From Candidatus Woesearchaeota archaeon (GTDB taxonomy: Archaea; Nanobdellota; Nanobdellia; Woesearchaeales; ARS49), in contig JASMHM010000001.1 in NCBI GenBank assembly GCA_030750765.1, forward strand, positions 334,696 to 398,695: a stretch of 64,000 nt of DNA, in the 5' to 3' direction. Position numbers and translations under genes: made by a program. Below the pieces are notes generated by a model. That model was not told the origin of the DNA. It saw nothing but the letters and a program-made list of their open reading frames with translations, and did no database searches. Below are positions 18,660-58,351 of this stretch, one piece after another; position 1 is the stretch's first letter, and each line of letters starts with the position of its first letter.

Positions 18660-20078
18660 ATGAAATATTGGCAGTATCTTATTCCCGTCATAGCTCTCAT
18701 CCTGATGAGCTTGCCGACGATGTACCCTCAACCAGTGCTACAAACAGACGGCATCGCGTACTACGGTTTTGCCAAGACCTGGTCTGAAACAGGCTCGTTT
18801 GAGGCAGACGTGCCTGAATACTACCGGTTTGCGAGCGTCCAAGAAAGCAAAGTAGGACACTACACACCCTTCGTCACCGTAACATTAGGTATTTTACTCA
18901 AAATGGGCGGAGATGTATTGTGGTTGAATGGAATCTACTGTGGACTCTTGTTTGCGATGGCTGCATGGTTCATCTATTTGCTAAGCAACTACCTAAAAAT
19001 CAATCCTTTACTCGTTTTACCATTAGCGTTATTGAACATCCGACCCTACTTCACCGCATGGGTTGGATCACTAACTGCTTTCGCTGGCTTTGCCTTCAGC
19101 ATCCCTGCGGTCTACTACGCGATTAAGTTTTTTGACAGCAACGATTGGCAAGATGGCTTCTGGGCTCTTGCATTCCTGCTGCTTACCGGACTTTCTTACA
19201 TCCAATTTGTATTATACACGCTTACCTTGTTCGTCATCCTGTTTATAGCAAGACTGATGAAGAATATGGAGATCACCTGGCCAAAAGTGAGAGCAAAAAC
19301 TTTCAAAATCAAATGGAAGAGTGGATGGTTGGTCGTTGTTGGCGCAGCCATCACCGCCGTAATCATCAAAGTCTTCATGTTCGCAGCCTCTGGAAGGAAA
19401 GGCTACATTACTGATTATGTGAACTATCTCATGCAAAATGGTGTTGGATATCCAAGGATATGGGAGCTACCCGTACTAACAGACAACGCGATCGTTGTTG
19501 CTCTGGCCATTGGCGGGTTAGCGTACGCAATCTACAAACAAAGATGGTATCTGGTGGCGCTAGCAGCAGGAACTTTAGGCTGCCTACTGTCCGGACCATT
19601 ACTAGGATTGAGCAACGCCTGGATATTTACCTACGTACTAAGATTCTACACTTTAAACGCAGTCTTCCTAGCATTACTTGCAGGCTACCTGATCCAAAGA
19701 CTATGGAAGTACAAGCTCACCAAGATTGTTTTCGGTGTTGCGGTCGCAGCACAACTTGTCATGTTCATAGCCTTTGCTAGCATGGTACAACCGGCCATCA
19801 CGGCAGAAGAGATGCACGTCTCCAACCTTTTACAGAGCACCAACAAACCCATCACCTTTGTAGAAAACGTGGACTTTGGCAACAACTTTGCAGAGCCAGC
19901 ATGGATCATGGCCTTTGCCCAACCACAAGCCTTTGAAGTAGTCTTCGAAGTACCTGACTACCTCCCTGCAGGATTAGTATTAGTGGAAGACAAGACCGTT
20001 CTAACAAAAGACGAACTCAAACTATTAAGCTTCCGCAAGGTAGTGTACGAAGGCGAGAAGGTGCTGCTTGTAGAATAA
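18660..20078 (+). CDS. polytopic membrane protein, possible GT-C-fold glycosyltransferase/glycan polymerase
   Basis: About 10-12 predicted TM helices. The first loop, TDGIAYYGF, is DE-motif-like. Sits in the glycan cluster. Confidence 0.45.
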   Translation: MKYWQYLIPVIALILMSLPTMYPQPVLQTDGIAYYGFAKTWSETGSFEADVPEYYRFASVQESKVGHYTPFVTVTLGILLKMGGDVLWLNGIYCGLLFAMAAWFIYLLSNYLKINPLLVLPLALLNIRPYFTAWVGSLTAFAGFAFSIPAVYYAIKFFDSNDWQDGFWALAFLLLTGLSYIQFVLYTLTLFVILFIARLMKNMEITWPKVRAKTFKIKWKSGWLVVVGAAITAVIIKVFMFAASGRKGYITDYVNYLMQNGVGYPRIWELPVLTDNAIVVALAIGGLAYAIYKQRWYLVALAAGTLGCLLSGPLLGLSNAWIFTYVLRFYTLNAVFLALLAGYLIQRLWKYKLTKIVFGVAVAAQLVMFIAFASMVQPAITAEEMHVSNLLQSTNKPITFVENVDFGNNFAEPAWIMAFAQPQAFEVVFEVPDYLPAGLVLVEDKTVLTKDELKLLSFRKVVYEGEKVLLVE

Positions 20079-33741: not shown

Positions 33742-34410
33742 ATGAGGATATCGAAAGAGGAGCATTGGGAGCAACAGCAGCAAGAAGAGTTCAAAACAAG
33801 AAAGGAAGGAACCACGCTGGCACAAAGCAAGAAGGCAGCTTACTTTATTGATATTCTCAAGAAGCATCAAGCTAAGAAAGTGTTGGATCTTGGTTGCAAT
33901 GATGGCGGTTTTACCATGCGATTGGAGCAAGAAGGTTTTGAGGCCATAGGTATGGACCTGCCCGATGTCGTCAAACACGCACAACAAAGCTTTCCCAAGG
34001 GTCATTTTGTTGCTGGCAGCGGAGAGAAGAAGTTTCCCTTCAAAGATGGAAGCTTTGATGCCATTATTGCGTCCGAAATCATCGAGCACATCCAGGAAGA
34101 CAAGCAATTCATTGAAGAATGCAAACGCATACTCAAGAAAGGAGGGATGCTGATAATGGCCACCCCAAATCCAGAGTACGCCATCCATGTTTGGCTGCGC
34201 ATGCTAGGTTACAAATGGGACAAAGGTCAGGACATGCACGCCAGAGAGTACACCTGGGAAGAGTTCAAGACCTTGCTCTCCCCCCTTTCGAACGTCACCA
34301 TCAAAGGCATTCCGTTCTCATACATCGATCACAAGAGCAAAGTAGGCTGGATTGAACGCTTTCTTGCAGACAGACAGAAACATACCTTGGTTGCTGTTGG
34401 GGTGCGATAG
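33742..34410 (+). CDS. class I SAM-dependent methyltransferase
   Basis: VLDLGCNDGGFT, DAIIASEIIEH and ILKKGGMLIMATPN motifs. TATA tttataaaag ~55 nt upstream. Confidence 0.75.
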   Translation: MRISKEEHWEQQQQEEFKTRKEGTTLAQSKKAAYFIDILKKHQAKKVLDLGCNDGGFTMRLEQEGFEAIGMDLPDVVKHAQQSFPKGHFVAGSGEKKFPFKDGSFDAIIASEIIEHIQEDKQFIEECKRILKKGGMLIMATPNPEYAIHVWLRMLGYKWDKGQDMHAREYTWEEFKTLLSPLSNVTIKGIPFSYIDHKSKVGWIERFLADRQKHTLVAVGVR

Positions 34411-34440: not shown

Positions 34441-34650
34441 GTGAGTGGAGTAACTGAATTTATAGATAATCCGACTTATTTTGGTAGAGATACCGACGGC
34501 GTTTCACTGACCGACCATAGCGAGACTTTCGCCCTCAACGAAGAAGGCGATGTGGATTGGGAAAGTATTGTAGAAGACGCCAGTAGAGAAAGCGAGTCGC
34601 GCAGGACTCGAGATGTCAGAGCCGTGTATCAGCGAATCGTCTCGCAATAG
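34441..34650 (+). CDS. small acidic hypothetical protein (69 aa)
   Basis: GTG start 22 nt after the TATA-like tttaaaag. Very acidic (D/E-rich) composition. Ends immediately before the 5S promoter. Confidence 0.3.
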   Translation: MSGVTEFIDNPTYFGRDTDGVSLTDHSETFALNEEGDVDWESIVEDASRESESRRTRDVRAVYQRIVSQ

Positions 34651-34652
34651 GT

Positions 34653-34660
34653 TTATAAAG
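34653..34660 (+). promoter_or_regulatory. TATA box of 5S rRNA promoter
   Basis: tttataaa positioned ~20-27 nt upstream of the 5S 5-prime end. Confidence 0.45.
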
Positions 34661-34678
34661 GACGTTCTTGTAGATTGC

Positions 34679-34795
34679 TTAGACGGCCATAGGGAGTGGG
34701 TCCCACCCGGTCTCATTCGAACCCGGAAGTTAAACCACTTTCCGTACCGGTCTGTACTGCGCTTTAGGTGTGGGAAAACCGGTAAGCTGTCACCC
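34679..34795 (+). rRNA. rrf: 5S ribosomal RNA (archaeal type)
   Basis: GGCCATAGGGAG...CACCCGGTCTCATTCGAACCCGGAAGTTAAAC matches the universally conserved 5S loop C/helix III region (cf. Sulfolobus CACCCGGACTCATTTCGAACCCGGAAGTTAAG). Helix I pairing occurs between the ends. Followed by TTTTTT. Confidence 0.8.
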
Positions 34796-34799
34796 TTTT

Positions 34800-35108
34800 T
34801 TATATTGGATCTAGCAAAGGTGTCTTTGCAGGTGCATACTTTGAAGCTGCAGCCATCAAAACGTTTGTTGCAACGCCTGCGATGAGCACACTCGGATAGT
34901 ACATCACGTTGAGCGCGATACCAGATAGCGCACCAACAGCGTATCCCATTCTTTGGTACCATCGAGAACCACCTCTTGCAGAGCGCATTGCTGCTCCACC
35001 TACGGTGTATCTTCCAGTGAGAATCGTGGTAGCCGTTCCTAAGGCATCTAGCGTTGTAACCAATCCTTTACCTGCTGCCGCAAGTGTGTCGGGTAATCGT
35101 GGGCTCAT
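34800..35108 (-). CDS. small glycine-zipper-like membrane protein (~100 aa)
   Basis: Gly/Ala-rich hydrophobic C-terminal half (GYAVGALSGIAL...AGVATNVLMAAA). ATG ~25 nt from a palindromic TATA (cttataaatt) shared with the divergent pcm gene. Confidence 0.3.
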   Translation of the reverse strand: MSPRLPDTLAAAGKGLVTTLDALGTATTILTGRYTVGGAAMRSARGGSRWYQRMGYAVGALSGIALNVMYYPSVLIAGVATNVLMAAASKYAPAKTPLLDPI

Positions 35109-41606: not shown

Positions 41607-42662
41607 ATGAGAAAAATACTGCTCTTGTTGTTGATGTTGGGATGCTCCACTGAGCCGGCAATAGAGATTGGTGTAGCCGTGGAATTGTCAGGGTTCGGTT
41701 CTTTCAGTGGCGAACGAATAGTCAGAGGGGCAGAACTTGCCCTGGAAGAGATCAACAACCAAGGCGGCATACACGGCGTACCACTTAAACTGGTGATCGA
41801 AGACACACGCACTAGCCCTTCGGAAGCGGCAAAGGTTTTTCACAAGATAAGTTCGCAAAACATTCCTGTAGTTATAAGCGGATGGACCGCTCAGAGCTCC
41901 GCCACGGCGCCCATCGCAGAATCCACGGAGACGGTATTGATCTCTGCTAGCGGAGGTGGAGAGGGAGGCGGCAGTCTAGGAAGATTTGTCTTCAGAACAT
42001 GGCCAGTGGATGCCCGAGAGGCAGCTGCAGCAGCCAAGTACATGCACAACCATGGAGCCAAGAAGGCAGCGGTTGTATACACCCAGGGTGTTTGGGAAGA
42101 GGGCATTCGCAAGGGCTTTGTTGATGCCTTCCCAGGAACAATCGTGGGCCAGTACACACAGACCGATCGTGTTGACTGGCGGACAGTCATCGCAAGAATC
42201 AAGGAACAGGCTCCTGAAGCCATATACCTGGCCATTGATGGCAATGCGATCCCCTCCTTCCTCAGACAGGCAAAAGAAGTAAACCTTCCCGCTCAGATCA
42301 TTGGAACTAGCTGGACAGACGACCCCGCAATCGTCAAGTCTTCAGGGGACGCACTAGAGGGTGTGATGTTTTCGCAGTACGCAGAGCCTTCAATTGCATT
42401 TGTTGCGTCGTACTCAAAAAAGTATGACATCGAACCCGCAACACCTGCAGATGTAGCCTATGACACGATCCACATACTCGCCAAAGTGATGAGCGACCAT
42501 GGAACAACGGCAGACGCCATCCGAAGTGGCCTGGCAGATGTCGAACACCATGGCGCCTCAGGAATCATTTCGTTTGACAAGCATGGTGACAGAATGAGCA
42601 GACCCATATCCGTCCACCAGTTTGTAAACGGAACACCGGTTAAACTTGCAGAGGACCTATAA
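41607..42662 (+). CDS. ABC transporter substrate-binding lipoprotein (type I periplasmic-binding fold, Liv/branched-chain amino-acid-like)
   Basis: Lipobox LLMLGC. PBP1-like sequence throughout. Confidence 0.7.
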   Translation: MRKILLLLLMLGCSTEPAIEIGVAVELSGFGSFSGERIVRGAELALEEINNQGGIHGVPLKLVIEDTRTSPSEAAKVFHKISSQNIPVVISGWTAQSSATAPIAESTETVLISASGGGEGGGSLGRFVFRTWPVDAREAAAAAKYMHNHGAKKAAVVYTQGVWEEGIRKGFVDAFPGTIVGQYTQTDRVDWRTVIARIKEQAPEAIYLAIDGNAIPSFLRQAKEVNLPAQIIGTSWTDDPAIVKSSGDALEGVMFSQYAEPSIAFVASYSKKYDIEPATPADVAYDTIHILAKVMSDHGTTADAIRSGLADVEHHGASGIISFDKHGDRMSRPISVHQFVNGTPVKLAEDL

Positions 42663-43181
42663 CATACGCAGCAAAGCACTCAGCACATGGCTACCATCAA
42701 AGCCAGGTATAGGTATCATGTTCAGCACGAACAAGAAGCCATTAACCTTCTTGGTAAGGGTCAACAACATGTAGTGCTTGCTTATGTGGGATTGCCCCAC
42801 ACTCTTCTTGAGCATGTGGCTGCTCACAAGGTAGAGAATGCCGTTTGTTGCCGGACCGGCCACTGAAATGACTAAGTTTTGCCAGGGCGCCATACTTCCT
42901 GCGATGCTGGCAAAGCCAGGAACAAAGAATACGAAAGGACTGCCTATGGCACGTAGCGCGATGCCTAGTCCTAGACCAAACATGCTAGCGTGGATGGTTG
43001 CTTGCAAGCCTACGAGGATAGCGACGAACTTGTGGGCTAGCTCATGACACACAATGGCAGGCCCTGTAACCATCATCATGGTCTTGTATGCAGGCCAGGT
43101 ACGTTCTGGTAAGAAGATGTAGCCCGTGGCTAGCACCATGATGATGATATCGATGATCTCAGCGATGGAAATGAGCGCCAT
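42657..43181 (-). CDS. site-2 protease family (M50) intramembrane metalloprotease
   Basis: HELAHKF (HExxH) in a TM helix. Multi-TM, 174 aa. Confidence 0.65.
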   Translation of the reverse strand: MALISIAEIIDIIIMVLATGYIFLPERTWPAYKTMMMVTGPAIVCHELAHKFVAILVGLQATIHASMFGLGLGIALRAIGSPFVFFVPGFASIAGSMAPWQNLVISVAGPATNGILYLVSSHMLKKSVGQSHISKHYMLLTLTKKVNGFLFVLNMIPIPGFDGSHVLSALLRML

Positions 43182-43235
43182 TATAGCATGAAAAGTAGGT
43201 TGTTAATATAGTTTTGTTAGAAATGAGAAAAAAAA

Positions 43236-43261
43236 ATGCTGCCTCTAGAAGGCAGAAAAAA
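43236..43261 (-). terminator. palindromic hairpin (ctgccttctagaggcag) flanked by A/T runs
   Basis: Perfect inverted repeat immediately 3-prime of the micro-ORF stop, followed by T-run on the minus strand. Confidence 0.4.
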
Positions 43262-43366
43262 TTACTTTCGCTTTCTCTTCTTTGAAGCCTTCTTGCGCTT
43301 CTTTCCTTTCTTCTTAGAAGCTTTCTTCTTTCGGGCTTTCTTTCTAGCTTTTTTCTTTTTTGCCAT
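43262..43366 (-). CDS. ultra-lysine-rich micro-protein (34 aa: MAKKKKARKKARKKKASKKKGKKRKKASKKRKRK)
   Basis: ATG preceded by GAGGTG 6 nt upstream. Clean stop followed directly by the hairpin terminator. The 77-aa track ORF in another frame reads through the hairpin. Confidence 0.4.
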   Translation of the reverse strand: MAKKKKARKKARKKKASKKKGKKRKKASKKRKRK

Positions 43367-43422
43367 AAGCACACCTCTTGTGTCGTGAGCAACCGTTTTG
43401 GTATTTAAATCTTGTGCTTGTA

Positions 43423-44301
43423 CTAGCTTAAGAAAAAGTTTTTTACCGAGTTATCAACAAAAGAAATCAATTCGTGCTTGTTTTCATTCGTTACTGGCTT
43501 GTTGAGCTGTGCTCCTGCTGCGAAGGCGTTGCCTCCACCACCCAAAACTTCTGCTAACTTAGCCATGCTTGTGCGATTGTGCTTGGATCGCCGGAAAATA
43601 ACGCTGCCATTGCGATACAGGAGCACGACAAAGTCTGCTCCGGAGTGTTCTAGAGCGTGTTCGCCTGCGTCTGCGCTCTGCAAAAGGTTCCTGCAAACGT
43701 AGAACGCAACGTTTTGGTCAACATAATTCTTGTCTAGCTTGTGCTTTTCCATCTCTTGCAGTGCTTCCTCACGCTTTCGTATGTAATCTTGGCGTGTTCT
43801 TTCCAATTCTTTGGTCCAGAAGACACCTTGGGAGAACAGCGAGACCAATTGTTTGGGATCCATGCCTGATGCGATGACATCTGAAAGCAATTGGCTTCGA
43901 TCGTCAACATTTTTGAATAGTTCTGCGTCTCTCGCGATCTTGGATAGGCTCACGCTCACGGAATCTTGCGGCATGAATCGTTCTTGGACAAGTTCTGCAC
44001 TGCATTGACTTGGTCGATCCAAAACATCGCTCATGGCACTTACTTCCTTTACAACATCATCGAACTTTGTTTTTTGGTGATAGCACCAGTATGCTATCTT
44101 GTTGTTCTTCGCTAGCTCTCTTACCGACTCTTCGCTTTCTGGTACTATGTCGAGTAAGAATAACACACTTTGTCGTACTGGTTCGAGTCCGTTTTGGAGA
44201 ATATGCAGCCGTATATCTTTCTGGCGGAGCCGCGCGTGCCTCATCAGTATGGCCGCGCTTGCCAAGCCGTCTAATCTGCTCGGAGCAAAAGCCACATACA
44301 T
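43423..44301 (-). CDS. degenerate DHH/DHHA1-family protein
   Basis: C-terminal GGGGNAFAAGAQ resembles the DHHA1 GGGHxxAAG motif. N-terminal SRLDGLASAAIL resembles DHH motif II. No intact DHH or DxD catalytic motifs. Confidence 0.45.
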   Translation of the reverse strand: MYVAFAPSRLDGLASAAILMRHARLRQKDIRLHILQNGLEPVRQSVLFLLDIVPESEESVRELAKNNKIAYWCYHQKTKFDDVVKEVSAMSDVLDRPSQCSAELVQERFMPQDSVSVSLSKIARDAELFKNVDDRSQLLSDVIASGMDPKQLVSLFSQGVFWTKELERTRQDYIRKREEALQEMEKHKLDKNYVDQNVAFYVCRNLLQSADAGEHALEHSGADFVVLLYRNGSVIFRRSKHNRTSMAKLAEVLGGGGNAFAAGAQLNKPVTNENKHELISFVDNSVKNFFLS

Positions 44302-47285: not shown

Positions 47286-48185
47286 TTAGCGACCTAACTC
47301 TGAAGCTTTCTGCGTGTCTACCACCAAGTTCTTTCCGATGAGGACGTGTTGGATGATGCAGTTCTTTCCTTGTGCCTTTGCCTTGTAGACTGCTTTGTCT
47401 GCTTCTTCAAAAAGATCAGAATAGGTTACTTTTTCGTCCAGCTTGGTGGCTAACCCTATGGAAACCGTGCGTTCGCCGCTTTCGAGGCTTCGGCGTAGCT
47501 TTTCCATCTCCTCGTTGGCTTCCTTTGGCCCCATCATGAGATGTATGGCGAACTCCTCACCGCCATACCTGCCTACCGTGCCCTTTACCGAGCGTAACTT
47601 GTCTGCCACCTTTTGCAAGAGTTGGTCGCCGGCAGTATGCCCCTTAGTGTCATTGTATGTTTTGAAATTGTCAATATCTAGCATGGCTACGCTGACCTCT
47701 CCTTTCATCTTACTGGATACAACACTGGAAAAGTGTTGTCGGTTGTACAGTTTGGTTAGGGAGTCATGTGTTGCCTTTTCTTCCATATTGGTGTGGGCTT
47801 CCATGCCTGCCAGAGCTTTTTGCAGAACTTCCACGCTAAAGGTTAGTTCTTCTATGTACGCTTGGAGTGGCGTTGTTCCGTAGAGGAATACGGCACCAAT
47901 AAAACTTCGATCTTTAACAACAGGCACAGCGATGTAGTATCCTGCTAGTTCTTTGGGTGTGGGCCCTCCTTCGGCCATTTTTTGTTCGCGAAGCTTTTCT
48001 ACCATTTCCTTTTCGAACACTTTGTACTCTTTCTTGTCGTAAAGCTGCGTTCGATCTCCGGAAAGAATTATGGTGACGTTGCTTGCTTGGAAGGTATGCT
48101 GGAAGTGGTCTAATGCTTTTTGGATCACACTTTTTTTGTTGAGTATGCCTAGTAGTGCGACTGCTAGTTCATACCCCTTTCTCAT
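47286..48185 (-). CDS. GGDEF-domain diguanylate cyclase with N-terminal GAF-like sensor domain
   Basis: HDSLTKLYNRQHF, MLDIDNFKTYNDTKGHTAGDQLL, RYGGEEF (A-site, coordinates 47550-47564) and ADKAVYKAKAQGKN motifs. There is no RxxD I-site. Confidence 0.75.
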   Translation of the reverse strand: MRKGYELAVALLGILNKKSVIQKALDHFQHTFQASNVTIILSGDRTQLYDKKEYKVFEKEMVEKLREQKMAEGGPTPKELAGYYIAVPVVKDRSFIGAVFLYGTTPLQAYIEELTFSVEVLQKALAGMEAHTNMEEKATHDSLTKLYNRQHFSSVVSSKMKGEVSVAMLDIDNFKTYNDTKGHTAGDQLLQKVADKLRSVKGTVGRYGGEEFAIHLMMGPKEANEEMEKLRRSLESGERTVSIGLATKLDEKVTYSDLFEEADKAVYKAKAQGKNCIIQHVLIGKNLVVDTQKASELGR

Positions 48186-49251
48186 GCTTCACCCTTTTGA
48201 CTGCCTCTTTGAACTCTTCCCACTTATCCTTTCTTATGGTACCACCAGCCGCCATACGATGACCGCCTGCAACACCTTTTCCCTCGGCAGCTTCTGCTAG
48301 GATTTCATTACCAGGAATGTCTGCTTGCGTTCGCATGCTAATATGCACCTTATCTCCCCTAGTGTCGGCCACGATGAGCATTTTGTCTTTGTGTCGCTTG
48401 GAAAGAAGGCTTGCAACGGTTCCTTTGATGCCAAACTTGGGTTCTATCTCATAGAAAACAATTTCTCCCTCTTTGTCTGCCTTTTCATCGTACTCATCGA
48501 TCACTCTGTTGATCTCTTTGTTGATTATTTCTTCATACTGTGCGAGTTTGCTGTTTAGAACGTCATCAGGACCTTTGGCGTTGTACACGACGTCGTAGCA
48601 TTCTCCCACTTTTGTCTTGTCAAAGGCCTCTGCGCTTGAGATAACGATGGCACAATGCCCTAACACTGTTTCGAACCATTCATTGTTGGGGGCTATCTTC
48701 CATTTTTCGCACACTTTCTTGAGAAAGCCTTCCCATTTCTTTGTGGCAACGTCTCCAATCATGCCTACAGCGCACATCCAGTCTAGATCTTCCATGTCGA
48801 CCAAGACTGCAGCTACGTCGTACACGATCTGTGCGGCAGAATAACCGCTTGCGTCTTCAATATCGTATGCTAGCTGGGGTTTGTAGATGATTGCGTGCTC
48901 TGTGCTGCTTACCGGGTGATGGTCTAAGACCATGACATTTGCGAACTCGCTCATGCTCTTGAGGGTTGCAGCATCTCCATCACAGTTAAGATCGGTGATA
49001 ACAACTTTGGTTACGTTCTTTTGTTTAAGCATCTCCACGGTTGCTGGAAGGATGGTGACCTCGCCGCCTTCTTGGTTGTAGCGAACGTCGACAGGCTTGC
49101 CACGTATGCGTTCGACAAGTTTTGCGGCAAGAACACCACTCGTCACGCCATCCGGATCAGTATGATGGATGACTGCAACAACATCTTCTTTGGTTAAGGT
49201 TTTGAAGAAATCTTCTGTTGCTTTGATAAGTTCTGGATTTCTGACCTTCAT
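48169..49251 (-). CDS. DHH/DHHA1 phosphoesterase (NrnA/RecJ-core-like)
   Basis: HHTDPDGVTSG (motif I/II), LDHH (motif III) and GGHRMAAGG (DHHA1) motifs. TATA cttttaaagc ~22 nt upstream. Confidence 0.75.
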   Translation of the reverse strand: MKVRNPELIKATEDFFKTLTKEDVVAVIHHTDPDGVTSGVLAAKLVERIRGKPVDVRYNQEGGEVTILPATVEMLKQKNVTKVVITDLNCDGDAATLKSMSEFANVMVLDHHPVSSTEHAIIYKPQLAYDIEDASGYSAAQIVYDVAAVLVDMEDLDWMCAVGMIGDVATKKWEGFLKKVCEKWKIAPNNEWFETVLGHCAIVISSAEAFDKTKVGECYDVVYNAKGPDDVLNSKLAQYEEIINKEINRVIDEYDEKADKEGEIVFYEIEPKFGIKGTVASLLSKRHKDKMLIVADTRGDKVHISMRTQADIPGNEILAEAAEGKGVAGGHRMAAGGTIRKDKWEEFKEAVKRVKHEKGV

Positions 49252-55281: not shown

Positions 55282-55668
55282 TCACTTTTTCTTCTTTTTC
55301 TTGACATCCTTCGTAAGAAGTTCGATTTTGGAAGGATCGCGTTTGATTTTCTTGACCACATTCGCACTGCCGATGATGGTAATGCCGGTTTGCATGCCCA
55401 GAACTAACCCCATCATGTCGTACTTGAACTTTTGTAGGCCATCCTTGACTCTGTCTCTAGGATCTATGACTGCTAACTCTATCCCTTTGAATTCTTTGTT
55501 GATCTCTTCCATGGTCGCCTTGATGAGCTCTTTCTCCTCATCAGGTCTGAGCCTTCCTTGGAGAAGGATTATTTTGTTGTCTTTAGCAAGATTCAAGAGT
55601 TTTCGGATTCTTCCTAGGCTGGACAGCTTTTCTATCTCATGATAGCCCATTACGTGAAACGTTACCAT
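55282..55668 (-). CDS. conserved small protein co-transcribed with GTPase, poly-Lys C-terminus
   Basis: 128 aa. Starts 2 nt after the GTPase stop. Ends DVKKKKKK. Confidence 0.5.
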   Translation of the reverse strand: MVTFHVMGYHEIEKLSSLGRIRKLLNLAKDNKIILLQGRLRPDEEKELIKATMEEINKEFKGIELAVIDPRDRVKDGLQKFKYDMMGLVLGMQTGITIIGSANVVKKIKRDPSKIELLTKDVKKKKKK

Positions 55669-55669
55669 T

Positions 55670-56293
55670 CTATGCTCCTATTAGATCAAACACTTCTTCA
55701 TAGAAGTTATTAATATTTTTCCCATATTTAGCACTAATTCCCACAATGTTGTATTGCGGGAAGGCTGCCTGGATTTTCTTCATGTTTGCCTTTCGTAGAT
55801 CTACTTTGTTTGCGGCAATGGTTACGGGAATCTCTCGTGCTTGTAAGTTCCCAATAATTGTGATGTTTACTTGGCTGTATGGGTCTGTGGTGGCGTCGAG
55901 AACAACAACTACGGCATCCATGTCGTCCAACCACTTGATGCTGTCAATAACACCTTTTGTGGCTTCTTTTGCTCGTTTCTTGGCCTTCTTCTCTGGCATT
56001 CCTGCCTTAAGGAACTCTTCATAGTCCACTTTAGTTGCGATGCCTGGCGTGTCTACCAGGTTAAATTGTAGTTCTCGCCCGTCTTTGCTCTTGATGGTGA
56101 CGCTTTCCTTCATCTGGATCTCTCGGGTCTCGTGAGCCATCTTGCTCACTTTGCCTAATTCCTCGCCGAGCCAGTCCTTACAAATGCGGTTGGCGAGCGT
56201 TGTCTTGCCAGAATTAGGCGGACCGTAGAGACCTAGCTTAACATCCTGCTTAGCAAACAGCCTTCTAAACCATCGTTTTAGGAACCTTAACAT
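55670..56293 (-). CDS. small GTP-binding protein (archaeal MMR_HSR1-type GTPase)
   Basis: G1 GPPNSGKTT, G3 DTPG, G4 NKVD, G5 SAK. Confidence 0.75.
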   Translation of the reverse strand: MLRFLKRWFRRLFAKQDVKLGLYGPPNSGKTTLANRICKDWLGEELGKVSKMAHETREIQMKESVTIKSKDGRELQFNLVDTPGIATKVDYEEFLKAGMPEKKAKKRAKEATKGVIDSIKWLDDMDAVVVVLDATTDPYSQVNITIIGNLQAREIPVTIAANKVDLRKANMKKIQAAFPQYNIVGISAKYGKNINNFYEEVFDLIGA

Positions 56294-56373
56294 CGTACTC
56301 CCCGTTCACTACCGGAGCGTACTCTCTATTTTTATACTTTTCGGTGTTGTAAAAAATAGAAAAAAAATAGAAA

Positions 56374-56610
56374 TTACTTTTTCTTGCCACCGCGCACCAT
56401 TTTAGCACGGCTAATGTCGCCTTTCTTGTCGACAAAATAGAGGTAGCCAGAATCTTTCTTGATTCCTACCTTAGCAACTTTTTGTGTCTTACCTGCGCTC
56501 TTCTTACGGCCACGGGCCATCTTTGCTCGGCTGACGTCTCCGTTCTTATCTACGAAGTACAGGTAGCCACTTTCTTTCTCAACTCCAACTTTTTCAACTT
56601 TTTCTGCCAT
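56374..56610 (-). CDS. small basic protein with two tandem ~37-aa repeats (KVG-x-K-x-SGYLYFVDK-x-GD-x-SRAKM-x-RG-x-KK)
   Basis: Internal duplication clear at the protein level. ATG (MAEKVEK) preceded by GGGGGAT 7 nt upstream. The track's upstream M is rejected. Confidence 0.55.
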   Translation of the reverse strand: MAEKVEKVGVEKESGYLYFVDKNGDVSRAKMARGRKKSAGKTQKVAKVGIKKDSGYLYFVDKKGDISRAKMVRGGKKK

Positions 56611-56686
56611 TGTTAATCCCCCCAAAACGAGTTTTTCTCGTCGGTGTGTTTGAATGATAACACAAGTTCTTTATAAGTCTTACGTT

Positions 56687-56887
56687 TTATTTTCTTTTAG
56701 ATTTCTTCTTTTTGGATTGTTTTTTTAAGGCCGGCTCTCGCACCCACCAATCTTTTGTAAGTAGGTTTGAGACTTTGGAAAATTTGGTTAACGATTTTTT
56801 GTAGTATTCCTTTGGCTTCTTGACCGGCTCCTCTTCCTTCTCCAACCTTTTGGCTTCCTTGAGCGCTTTCTTCACACGTTTGTTCAT
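56687..56887 (-). CDS. possible small Lys-rich protein (66 aa)
   Basis: The C-terminal half of the 133-aa track ORF is strongly basic (…KKQSKKKKSKRK). The N-terminal half overlaps the herA-like start on the opposite strand and is rejected. Confidence 0.3.
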   Translation of the reverse strand: MNKRVKKALKEAKRLEKEEEPVKKPKEYYKKSLTKFSKVSNLLTKDWWVREPALKKQSKKKKSKRK

Positions 56888-56938
56888 GACCCGTCGAAAA
56901 CAGAGCAGGTTTATAAGAATTGCTCCATTGACGGCCGT

Positions 56939-58351
56939 ATGAAGGGTCTTGTTATCGGAGGAGAGTTCAACAACATTCTTGTTCGAGAGAAGGCCGATGC
57001 AAAGATAGAGCTTGGAGAAATCCTTGTAGTGGATAATCAATTCTTGCAAGTGGTTGATTTGGAGTACGGCTCTCAGCTTTCTCAGCAAGGGTTAGAGCTG
57101 GCAAGCGGTCTTACCCTGGAAGGTCAGGATGTTATCTTGATGGACTCCAACATTAGACACTATGTTCTTGCGCGGATGAAAAATTTGGTGAGCATGGTGG
57201 ACAACAAACCCGTAGCAAGCAAGCAACTTCCCACCTTCTTTTCTGAAGTGAGGACACTCGCCAAAGAAGATGTTTCCTTTCTCACCTTACCCCAGAATCC
57301 TTTGGTGCTGGGAAAGTTACGCTCAGGTTCTACAGTGTTGGACGTTCCTGTTGGTTTGGATGGAGGGCTAGCCCTCTCCCATCATATTCTTGTTTGCGGC
57401 TCCACAGGTAAAGGAAAAAGCAATCTCATGCGAAACTTGTTATGGGAAGCGCAGGACAAAGACTATTGTGGCATGCTTATTTTAGATCCGCACGATGAAT
57501 ACTACGGTCGAACGCATCACGGGTTGAAAGATCATACCTCGAAGCCTGCTTACTATTCTAAGAACGCCCCTCCTGGTGCCTTCACGCTCACCATCAGCAC
57601 CAAGACCTTACAACCTCACCATTTTGATGGCGTGGTGCACTGGAGCGACGCACAGCGACAAGCATTGCAATCCTTCAAGTACGAATACGGAGACGCGTGG
57701 GTTACTGCCGCTTTGCAAGGAAAGGAATTGAAAGCGAAATTTGTGGAGATGACGGTAGGGGTCGTCCAGCGAAGATTGCAGCAGTTGTTAAGCATCGACA
57801 GCCATCTTAACGCAAGGGGCTGTTTTGATTTGCAAGCAGGCAGCACCACGATCAATGACATGGTGCGAGGGATACAAGAAGGAAAGACCGTCATCGTGGA
57901 TACGAGCGAGGTCTCAGGCCCTACTGAGTTGTTGATTGGTAGTATCGTTGCTAGCGCCCTTCTACATGCCAACAAGGCAAAAGGGTTTGATGAGTTGAAA
58001 GAAGCTCCCACAGCTAGCATCGTGCTGGAAGAGGCACCCAGAGTCCTAGGAAAGGACGCACCGCCTAATGTGTTCTCTACCATAGCACGCGAAGGAAGAA
58101 AGTTTAAGGTGGGGTTAATTGCGATAACACAAGTACCGAGCTTGATCCCTCGAGAGATCTTGGCAAACATGAACACGAAAATCATTCTCGGCATGGAGAG
58201 CAAGATTGAGCGTCAGGCAGTGATTGATTCTGCACCTCAAGATTTGAGTACAGACGAGAGAACGATAGCTTCGTTTGACAAGGGAGAGGCTTTAGTGACG
58301 AGTTCGTTCATCCCCTTCCCGTTTCCCATCAAGATTCCAGAATTTACTTGA
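56939..58351 (+). CDS. HerA-like ATPase (HAS-barrel + FtsK/HerA RecA-like P-loop domain; DUF87-type)
   Basis: N-terminal HAS-barrel-like MKGLVIGGEF...GEILVVD. Walker A GSTGKGKSN, DPHDEYY box, Walker B TVIVDTSE. Confidence 0.7.
   Translation: MKGLVIGGEFNNILVREKADAKIELGEILVVDNQFLQVVDLEYGSQLSQQGLELASGLTLEGQDVILMDSNIRHYVLARMKNLVSMVDNKPVASKQLPTFFSEVRTLAKEDVSFLTLPQNPLVLGKLRSGSTVLDVPVGLDGGLALSHHILVCGSTGKGKSNLMRNLLWEAQDKDYCGMLILDPHDEYYGRTHHGLKDHTSKPAYYSKNAPPGAFTLTISTKTLQPHHFDGVVHWSDAQRQALQSFKYEYGDAWVTAALQGKELKAKFVEMTVGVVQRRLQQLLSIDSHLNARGCFDLQAGSTTINDMVRGIQEGKTVIVDTSEVSGPTELLIGSIVASALLHANKAKGFDELKEAPTASIVLEEAPRVLGKDAPPNVFSTIAREGRKFKVGLIAITQVPSLIPREILANMNTKIILGMESKIERQAVIDSAPQDLSTDERTIASFDKGEALVTSSFIPFPFPIKIPEFT

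Follow-up and report, generated by a model that had tools for sequence, protein, structure and literature searches.

A putative lysine-rich micro-gene upstream of an M50 peptidase gene in a sub-clade of Woesearchaeota-like DPANN archaea

A 34-codon open reading frame on the minus strand of the window, the term used here for the whole 64,000-nucleotide stretch of DNA analysed, is probably a genuine micro-gene, transcribed and translated autonomously in one marine sub-clade of Woesearchaeota-like DPANN archaea, and its product would be a nucleic-acid-binding polycation. This explanation is favoured with some reserve and is drawn from sequence comparison. The reading frame lies between a DHH/DHHA1-like gene (43423-44301) and the gene for a 174-aa M50 peptidase (42657-43181), both on the same strand, and the homologues of the M50 protein are named Woesearchaeota or Nanoarchaeota. 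OapB is encoded in the window too, and the organism is a marine DPANN archaeon. The predicted peptide, MAKKKKARKKARKKKASKKKGKKRKKASKKRKRK, is 34 aa long, consists of Lys and Arg to three-quarters (25/34), and contains only K, R, A, S and G after the initiator Met. Protein databases omit sequences of this length, so that a conserved gene of this size can stay invisible. If real and abundant, the peptide would add a free-standing polycation to the very small DPANN parts list and could be considered for the part of a missing chromatin or ribosome component or of a polyamine substitute.

Organization of the micro-gene

The original prediction described a 34-aa reading frame on the minus strand with GAGGTG 6 nt upstream of its ATG, a perfect palindromic hairpin plus T-run behind its stop codon, and, taken together, a compact unit. 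The reading frame is as described and the compactness of the unit is borne out, as it carries its own TATA box, Shine-Dalgarno (SD) sequence, and hairpin with T-run. Two details needed correction: the distance from the SD to the ATG is 5 nt instead of 6 nt, and the hairpin, although present together with a run of nine T, has seven pairs including one G.U pair (six perfect) rather than a perfect stem. The features of the locus are, from 5′ to 3′:

43402..43409 (minus strand), TATA box TTTAAATA of the putative micro-gene promoter, the sole exact TTTAAATA in the 64 kb
43380..43401 (minus strand), spacer between TATA box and transcription start, predicted to be untranscribed, with the start inferred from the 29-30 nt rule described below
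43367..43379 (minus strand), 13-nt 5′ leader AAGAGGTGTGCTT, containing the SD GAGGTG at 43377-43372
43262..43366 (minus strand), 34-codon ORF plus TAA, from the ATG at 43366 to the TAA at 43262, encoding MAKKKKARKKARKKKASKKKGKKRKKASKKRKRK
43239..43255 (minus strand), 3′ hairpin CTGCCTT-CTA-GAGGCAG, called by a scan for terminator-like structures
43228..43236 (minus strand), T9 run, a putative oligo-T terminator, read from the sequence
43203..43210 (minus strand), TATA-like box TATATTAA of the M50 gene, 21 nt before the M50 ATG

A promoter survey covered 64 putative genes in the window. In most operon-leading genes, a TATA-like box (CTTTAAAA, CTTTTAAG or TTTATAAG) begins 29-30 nt upstream of the ATG, as at 18660, 20109, 24448 and 46101, and this distance therefore implies predominantly leaderless mRNAs. 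SD sequences of the GAGGTG type are limited to a minority of genes, mostly operon-internal, and precede, for example, 34504-34962 and 33742-34410. The promoter and SD of the micro-gene thus agree with usage elsewhere in the same genome. When the 29-30 nt rule is applied to TTTAAATA, transcription is predicted to start at about 43379-43380, which coincides with the beginning of a sequence block that is invariant among relatives. In the proposed sequence of events, the TTTAAATA promoter would start an mRNA of about 150 nt near 43379, the 13-nt leader with its GAGGTG would direct translation of the 34 codons, and the hairpin with U9 would end, and probably stabilise, the transcript. A GTG start two codons upstream (MLMAKK...) was rejected, as it overlaps the SD itself.

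The stop codon is followed by T6, the hairpin (43255-43239), CA and T9 (43236-43228). The hairpin folds at -8.9 kcal/mol with z = -3.1. The whole predicted transcript has no significant global structure against shuffles (z = -1.07), and its minimum-energy fold pairs the A-rich tract with U-runs; the sequences are too few for covariation. The Lys/Arg tract itself is far beyond chance: in dinucleotide shuffles of the ORF body, the K/R count of frame 0 was reached in 1 of 20,000, and a frame restricted to K/R/A/S/T/G in 0 of 20,000. A window-wide scan found no other K/R-rich micro-ORF in the 64 kb.

Relatives and distribution

Relatives were collected by neighbour-anchored look-ups and one DNA-motif scan, which gave four informative lineages, the window included, plus outgroups. 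The unit stands upstream of the M50 gene in all four, and the M50 proteins of the other three are 87%, 66% and 51% identical to that of the window. Peptide lengths are 34 aa in the window and in the Tara Oceans loci (referred to below as Tara), 22 aa in L018 and 28 aa in L022. The relatives that bear on the micro-gene are:

Tara Oceans loci L012-L015, M50 87% identical, 34-aa peptide with K34R and two synonymous changes, full unit
L018, M50 66% identical, MATKKKKKKAAKKRKKASKRKK followed by an in-frame TAG beyond which K-rich sequence goes on, full unit
L022, M50 51% identical, MAKKRKKAAKRTKSRKSSKKTSKKKRRR, a different upstream neighbour and a differing hairpin stem
L010, M50 49% identical, only MKKKKKGCCGSC, a 12-codon K-rich ORF that abuts M50 with no terminator between

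Seven more distant loci, with 34-163 nt upstream of M50, lack a K/R-rich ORF altogether, and one of these outgroups, L070, retains the gene order DHH-M50-SecF-SecD. For these reasons the unit characterises a single sub-clade and has the look of an insertion into a gene order older than itself. In L018 (95-225), the TAG after codon 22 is followed by further K-rich codons (SSKKTKKKK) and by an apparent 11-nt indel before the hairpin; the TAG could reflect recent truncation, an error in the sequence of this single Logan contig, or read-through. Gene calls on 13 metagenome contigs include the exact peptide of the window, each time in the same context, and these contigs are essentially clonal; nine near-identical strain contigs show 0-3 differences in 1.6 kb and are thus without population signal. 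The metagenome scan with an 18-base SD-ATG motif returned 44 loci, 43 of them unrelated genes, so that L022 alone was useful, and a contig scan with the upstream neighbour gave only L011, a 31%-identical, non-syntenic locus from a high-GC MAG.

The original prediction had pointed to conservation of the reading frame and of the hairpin in related genomes as telling for its case. The ATG, the SD, the K/R-rich frame, and the hairpin with its T-run are kept in the four lineages, in L022 with a different stem at the same place (GCUGC/GCAGC). The stem is therefore common to three of the four; its loop varies (TTC in Tara, GTGA in L018), and the T-runs 3′ of the hairpin are T8 in Tara, T16 in L018 and T7 in L022. 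A C-to-U change in the stem of the window leaves a G.U pair in the RNA of the minus strand alone, and for that reason supports the assignment of the unit to this strand.

The 5′ signals are kept too. The TTTAAATA box is unchanged in the alignment of the window, Tara, L018 and L022, and the 21 nt that run from the upstream stop codon through the end of the box have the same sequence in the window and Tara. A 20-nt block, AAGAGGTGTGCT(T/A)ATGGCAA, which runs from the predicted transcription start to codon 2, is identical in the four lineages save for the single T/A position. Between the window and Tara the 5′ leader shows 0/13 differences, whereas the spacer between TATA box and predicted start differs at 6/22 positions (27%), though flanked by two invariant blocks. 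In sum, the TATA box, the AAGAGGTGTGCTNATGGCAA block and the hairpin with its T-run are conserved, while divergence is seen in the TATA-to-start spacer, in the loop of the hairpin and in the spacer downstream of the unit.

Probable independence from the M50 gene

The position of the unit raises the question of whether its peptide acts in cis, as a leader peptide or regulatory upstream ORF, in which slow translation of the poly-Lys tract or the supply of Lys-tRNA would control termination and hence expression of M50, and in some relatives of SecF/SecD. The unit is always immediately upstream of M50, even in L022 with its different upstream neighbour; SecF/SecD come next after M50 in Tara, L022, L069 and L070; 6 nt separate the stop codon from the hairpin, which a terminating ribosome could therefore mask; and in L010 the 12-codon K-rich ORF runs up to M50 with nothing to terminate transcription in between. 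Several features nevertheless make such control quite improbable. M50 has its own TATA-like box downstream of the terminator, with a TATTAA core that is kept and a position 21 nt before the ATG in the window, L018 and L022 alike. Since this conserved box fits the leaderless rule of the genome, M50 has its own predicted leaderless promoter, and the micro-gene is, on this evidence, autonomous rather than a leader peptide. In the whole-transcript fold, which is no better than that of shuffles, no alternative, antiterminator-type pairing stands out, and the peptide lacks a signal or transmembrane segment as found in monitors of the SecM, VemP and MifM type. Moreover, oligo-T is the transcription termination signal of archaea, and termination there relies on it and not on hairpins.

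Evidence for translation and selection

In the window, L018 and L022, frame 0 after the Met encodes K/R/A/S/T/G only, a restriction matched by at most 2 of 20,000 dinucleotide shuffles, and the other frames contain D/E, hydrophobic residues and stops. The exclusion of 14 amino-acid types is thus confined to frame 0 and is repeated in three lineages. Among the four orthologues, Lys and Arg make up 64-74% of the residues and the remainder is A/S/T/G only, so that W, L, I, V and internal M are missing from all of them, although pairs of orthologues share between 14/27 and 33/34 positions and indels occur among them. Both CGN and AGR codons are used for Arg, and those for Ala, Ser and Thr stand in phase; the use of CGN besides AGR indicates that it is charge, rather than purine content, that is kept. 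The indels within the ORFs are 3, 6 or 12 nt long, all multiples of three, which is a weak argument here because AAG-type repeats keep phase by slippage alone in such trinucleotide-periodic sequence. Judged from these comparisons among four lineages, the coding interpretation of the micro-ORF is supported and quite probable, and selection acts to keep the net charge and to exclude acidic and hydrophobic residues rather than to keep any one sequence.

Against Tara, the ORF differs by two synonymous changes and one K-to-R replacement, and its dN is 0.012 compared with 0.058 and 0.108 for the neighbouring genes. It is the most conserved 105-nt segment in 2.9 kb (98% against 79.6 ± 7.1%). Synonymous divergence is low as well, with pS of 0.10 against 0.6 in the neighbours, but Lys codons change slowly in the neighbours as well (16% differ, P = 0.17). 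At four-fold codons, 1/11 changed in the ORF where 51% would be expected from the neighbours (P about 0.005). This hints at an extra constraint on the ORF at the codon or RNA level, which a purely protein-level model leaves unaccounted for.

Such constraint would also fit if the functional product were the purine-rich RNA of about 150 nt itself, regulatory or structural, and the open frame were a by-product of AAG-type repeats. The region from the predicted +1 to the terminator is conserved and the untranscribed spacer is not, four-fold sites are held beyond the rate of the neighbours, the 3′ hairpin is conserved, and in purine-only tracts, which lack stop codons, several frames stay open. A functional RNA would leave unexplained, however, why a canonical SD at the right spacing and the ATG are invariant, why frame 0 alone excludes acidic and hydrophobic codons in three lineages with pyrimidine-containing CGN, GCN and TCN codons in phase, and why at larger distance the nucleotides diverge freely while the composition of the peptide is kept. 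As the transcript also shows neither significant structure over its whole length (z = -1.07) nor an Rfam family, an RNA-only function is considered unlikely, and translation of the micro-gene into a polycation is the preferred reading.

Search for known families

Searches of Pfam and NCBIfam with the peptide gave no match at E <= 1, and a phmmer search of the PDB, with a library that includes eL41 and bS22 chains, gave none at E <= 10, whereas eL41 queries recover each other in the same search. An exhaustive HMMER search against 1.84 billion representatives also returned no match, which is uninformative because the peptide variants are not in the collection; all four variants are absent from a collection of 15 billion sequences. 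The lack of a known family is thus a weak negative, homology searches being blind to peptides this short. At the gathering threshold, the sole Rfam match in the window is a 5S rRNA at 34679-34795, and the micro-gene matches no family. A literature search turned up no account of a poly-Lys micro-protein encoded on its own in DPANN, and the peptide probably belongs to an undescribed family. A type I toxin-antitoxin system was rejected, since the hydrophobic antisense ORF is not conserved: the F/L-rich frame at 43236-43388 (plus strand) has lost its ATG in Tara, is shortened in L018 and is absent in L022.

The original prediction had compared the peptide to eL41, and this comparison is not supported. 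The ribosomal protein eL41/eS32 (Pfam PF05162) is, like the peptide, free-standing, extremely basic, about 25-37 aa long, predicted or known to be helical, and easily missed by annotation; archaeal eL41 has 36-37 aa, as in P. abyssi (PDB 6sw9 chain 0, 36 aa), and the peptide, with 34 aa and 25 K/R, falls within the usual range for length and Arg/Lys content. The assignment was rejected because the Trp/aliphatic core of eL41 (KW-x-KKR-x-RRLKR), which was confirmed in yeast and four archaeal PDB chains, is absent, no profile or PDB match exists, and with the null2 composition correction turned off, K/R columns alone align. A canonical eL41 ORF was not found within the 64-kb window, which says little about the whole genome. 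AlphaFold2 returns a single helix for the peptide with pLDDT 96.6, a value that reflects helical propensity only, as it concerns a lone helix predicted from a single sequence.

A ribosomal role for the peptide is nevertheless plausible by analogy. It could be a lineage-specific ribosomal micro-protein in a defined rRNA pocket, either a diverged eL41/eS32 or a non-homologous analogue of eL41, bS22 or the mS38 N-terminus at the h27/h44/h45 cavity. Length, extreme basicity and the predicted single helix match such a protein, and unrelated small basic proteins, bS22 and the N-terminus of mS38, hold the eL41 site in bacteria and mitochondria, respectively (PMC7005279; PMC9932298). The 33-aa bS22 of Actinobacteria and Bacteroidota and the mS38 N-terminus show that lineage-specific polycationic micro-proteins can join ribosomes (PMC7005279), and uS19 of Parcubacteria carries an Ala/Lys-rich C-terminal extension (PMC9297842). 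A strong promoter, an SD, a terminator and conservation at synonymous sites would likewise suit a highly expressed gene of the translation apparatus, and eL41 is patchily distributed in archaea. On the other hand, the core of eL41 can be traced by its Trp and aliphatic residues from yeast to Pyrococcus and is wholly missing in the peptide, which varies from 22 to 34 aa; bS22 differs in having a defined, conserved sequence with hydrophobic positions; and neither eL41 nor bS22 chains were matched in the searches. Drift from 34 to 22 aa and loss in sister lineages would be unusual for an integral, pocket-filling protein. As eL41 is recorded as present in Nanoarchaeota (PMC9932298), a canonical copy may exist elsewhere in the genome. 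Occupation of a defined ribosomal pocket is therefore regarded as rather unlikely.

Probable mode of action

The pattern fits a generic polyanion binder better than a ribosomal protein of the pocket type. The product would be a polycation of 22-34 residues, 64-74% Lys/Arg with Ala/Ser/Thr/Gly spacers and a high helical propensity, and it would probably be abundant. Its most likely action, inferred from the sequence, would be electrostatic binding and charge neutralisation of nucleic acid: binding is suggested by 25 positive charges in 34 residues, and a generic rather than pocket-specific mode by the drift in length and sequence together with the loss in sister lineages. The original prediction of a nucleic-acid-condensing or ribosome-associated peptide is, as far as charge goes, a reasonable one. 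The peptide may act as a "lysine protamine" or as a counter-ion for DNA or rRNA resembling the tail of histone H1, instead of fitting residue by residue into a ribosomal pocket.

Fish protamines are about 32 aa long, two-thirds to three-quarters basic with small Ser/Ala/Gly spacers, and neutralise the charge of DNA. The peptide resembles them in size, in charge density and in fast sequence evolution with composition kept; protamines are, however, Arg-rich, eukaryotic and sperm-specific, whereas the peptide is Lys-rich and archaeal and shows no homology to them. Lys/Ala-rich tails with the same low-complexity Ala/Ser/Lys composition are found on histone H1, Hc1 of bacteria and HupB of mycobacteria. 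In a protamine-like or H1-tail-like class, understood as a functional class and not a homology family, at least 60% of residues are basic, spacers are small, acidic and hydrophobic residues are lacking, and composition is kept while sequence drifts, and all of these hold for the peptide. The Parcubacteria uS19 extension is of like composition and likewise comes from an ultra-small-cell lineage (PMC9297842). The polycations of H1, Hc1, HupB and uS19 are tails on folded domains, unlike the peptide, which is encoded alone with its own promoter, SD and terminator.

Possible origin in the M50 leader

In outgroups, a box of the TTTAAATA type stands directly before M50:

L010, 2716-2788, box TTTATATACC, with MKKKKKGCCGSC between box and M50
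L020, 3965-4000, box CATTTAAATAAC
L070, 1466-1500, box TATTAAATAC

In the clade of the window, the TTTAAATA box is predicted to drive the micro-ORF, and M50 to use a second box. The 12-codon ORF of L010 may be a remnant or a proto-state of the micro-gene. From this arrangement, the micro-gene may have arisen by expansion of AAG repeats in the old M50 leader and later gained a terminator. A fuller version, put forward only tentatively, is that of a de novo "lysine protamine", in which the AAG expansion in the M50 leader would have led to a highly expressed polycation gene, with a terminator acquired and M50 provided with a second promoter, and in which the product would supply the ultra-small DPANN archaea of this clade with a bulk counter-ion for their DNA or rRNA, or with a ribosomal or chromatin component specific to the lineage. 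If true, a de novo origin would make this a traceable birth of a micro-gene from low-complexity sequence in archaea, and the outgroup loci would offer an unusually clear before-and-after view of a micro-gene arising in a promoter-proximal leader.

The same arrangement could be read to mean that the ORF is young and essentially neutral, an AAG-repeat expansion in the former M50 leader that is transcribed and perhaps translated with no selected function. Besides the outgroup boxes standing before M50 with no micro-ORF, the low-complexity repeat sequence, the variable length, the truncation in L018 and the L010 remnant speak for this. The TAG in L018, the remnant in L010 and the seven loci without the unit show that the peptide is dispensable and length-tolerant, and they could fit a marginal or young gene too. 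Yet the signals are intact even where M50 identity has fallen to 51%, no other segment of the locus is as well conserved against Tara, dN is lower than in either neighbouring gene, 14 amino-acid types are kept out of frame 0 alone in each of three lineages, and a dedicated terminator was acquired while M50 has a second promoter. Neutrality is accordingly very improbable, and a selected polycation gene remains the favoured reading.

Other features of the window

The original prediction also saw the poly-Lys theme recur at the C-termini of three further proteins. This was found for 55282-55668 (...DVKKKKKK) and 56687-56887 (...KKQSKKKKSKRK), but 56374-56610 ends merely in GGKKK. Strongly K/R-rich C-termini occur in 2 of 67 putative genes, namely those for OapB (55282-55668) and a 66-aa ORF (56687-56887), in a proteome with 7.7% Lys; such tails are not a genome-wide trait. 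The region 55282-58351 holds an origin-associated cluster of OapB (PF09846), an adjacent MMR_HSR1 GTPase resembling OapA, and a divergent HerA-like ATPase, and a replication origin may lie near it. An 83-aa ORF at 56374-56625 (minus strand) consists of two tandem repeats of about 40 aa (…SGYLYFVDKNGDVSRAKMARGRKK / …SGYLYFVDKKGDISRAKMVRGGKKK), has no match in Pfam or NCBIfam, and may represent a small, duplicated nucleic-acid-binding domain.

The window has a GC content of about 47%, contains no tRNA genes in its 64 kb, and carries its lone 5S rRNA gene (34679-34795, plus strand) unlinked to 16S and 23S. At 47286-49251 (minus strand), a gene for a 299-aa GGDEF protein (PF00990, E = 5e-31) overlaps that for a 360-aa DHH/DHHA1 phosphoesterase by 17 nt. 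Cyclic-di-nucleotide signalling of the GGDEF/DHH type is not expected in a DPANN archaeon; the two proteins are diguanylate-cyclase-like and phosphodiesterase-like by sequence, and the pair is kept in the strain contigs.
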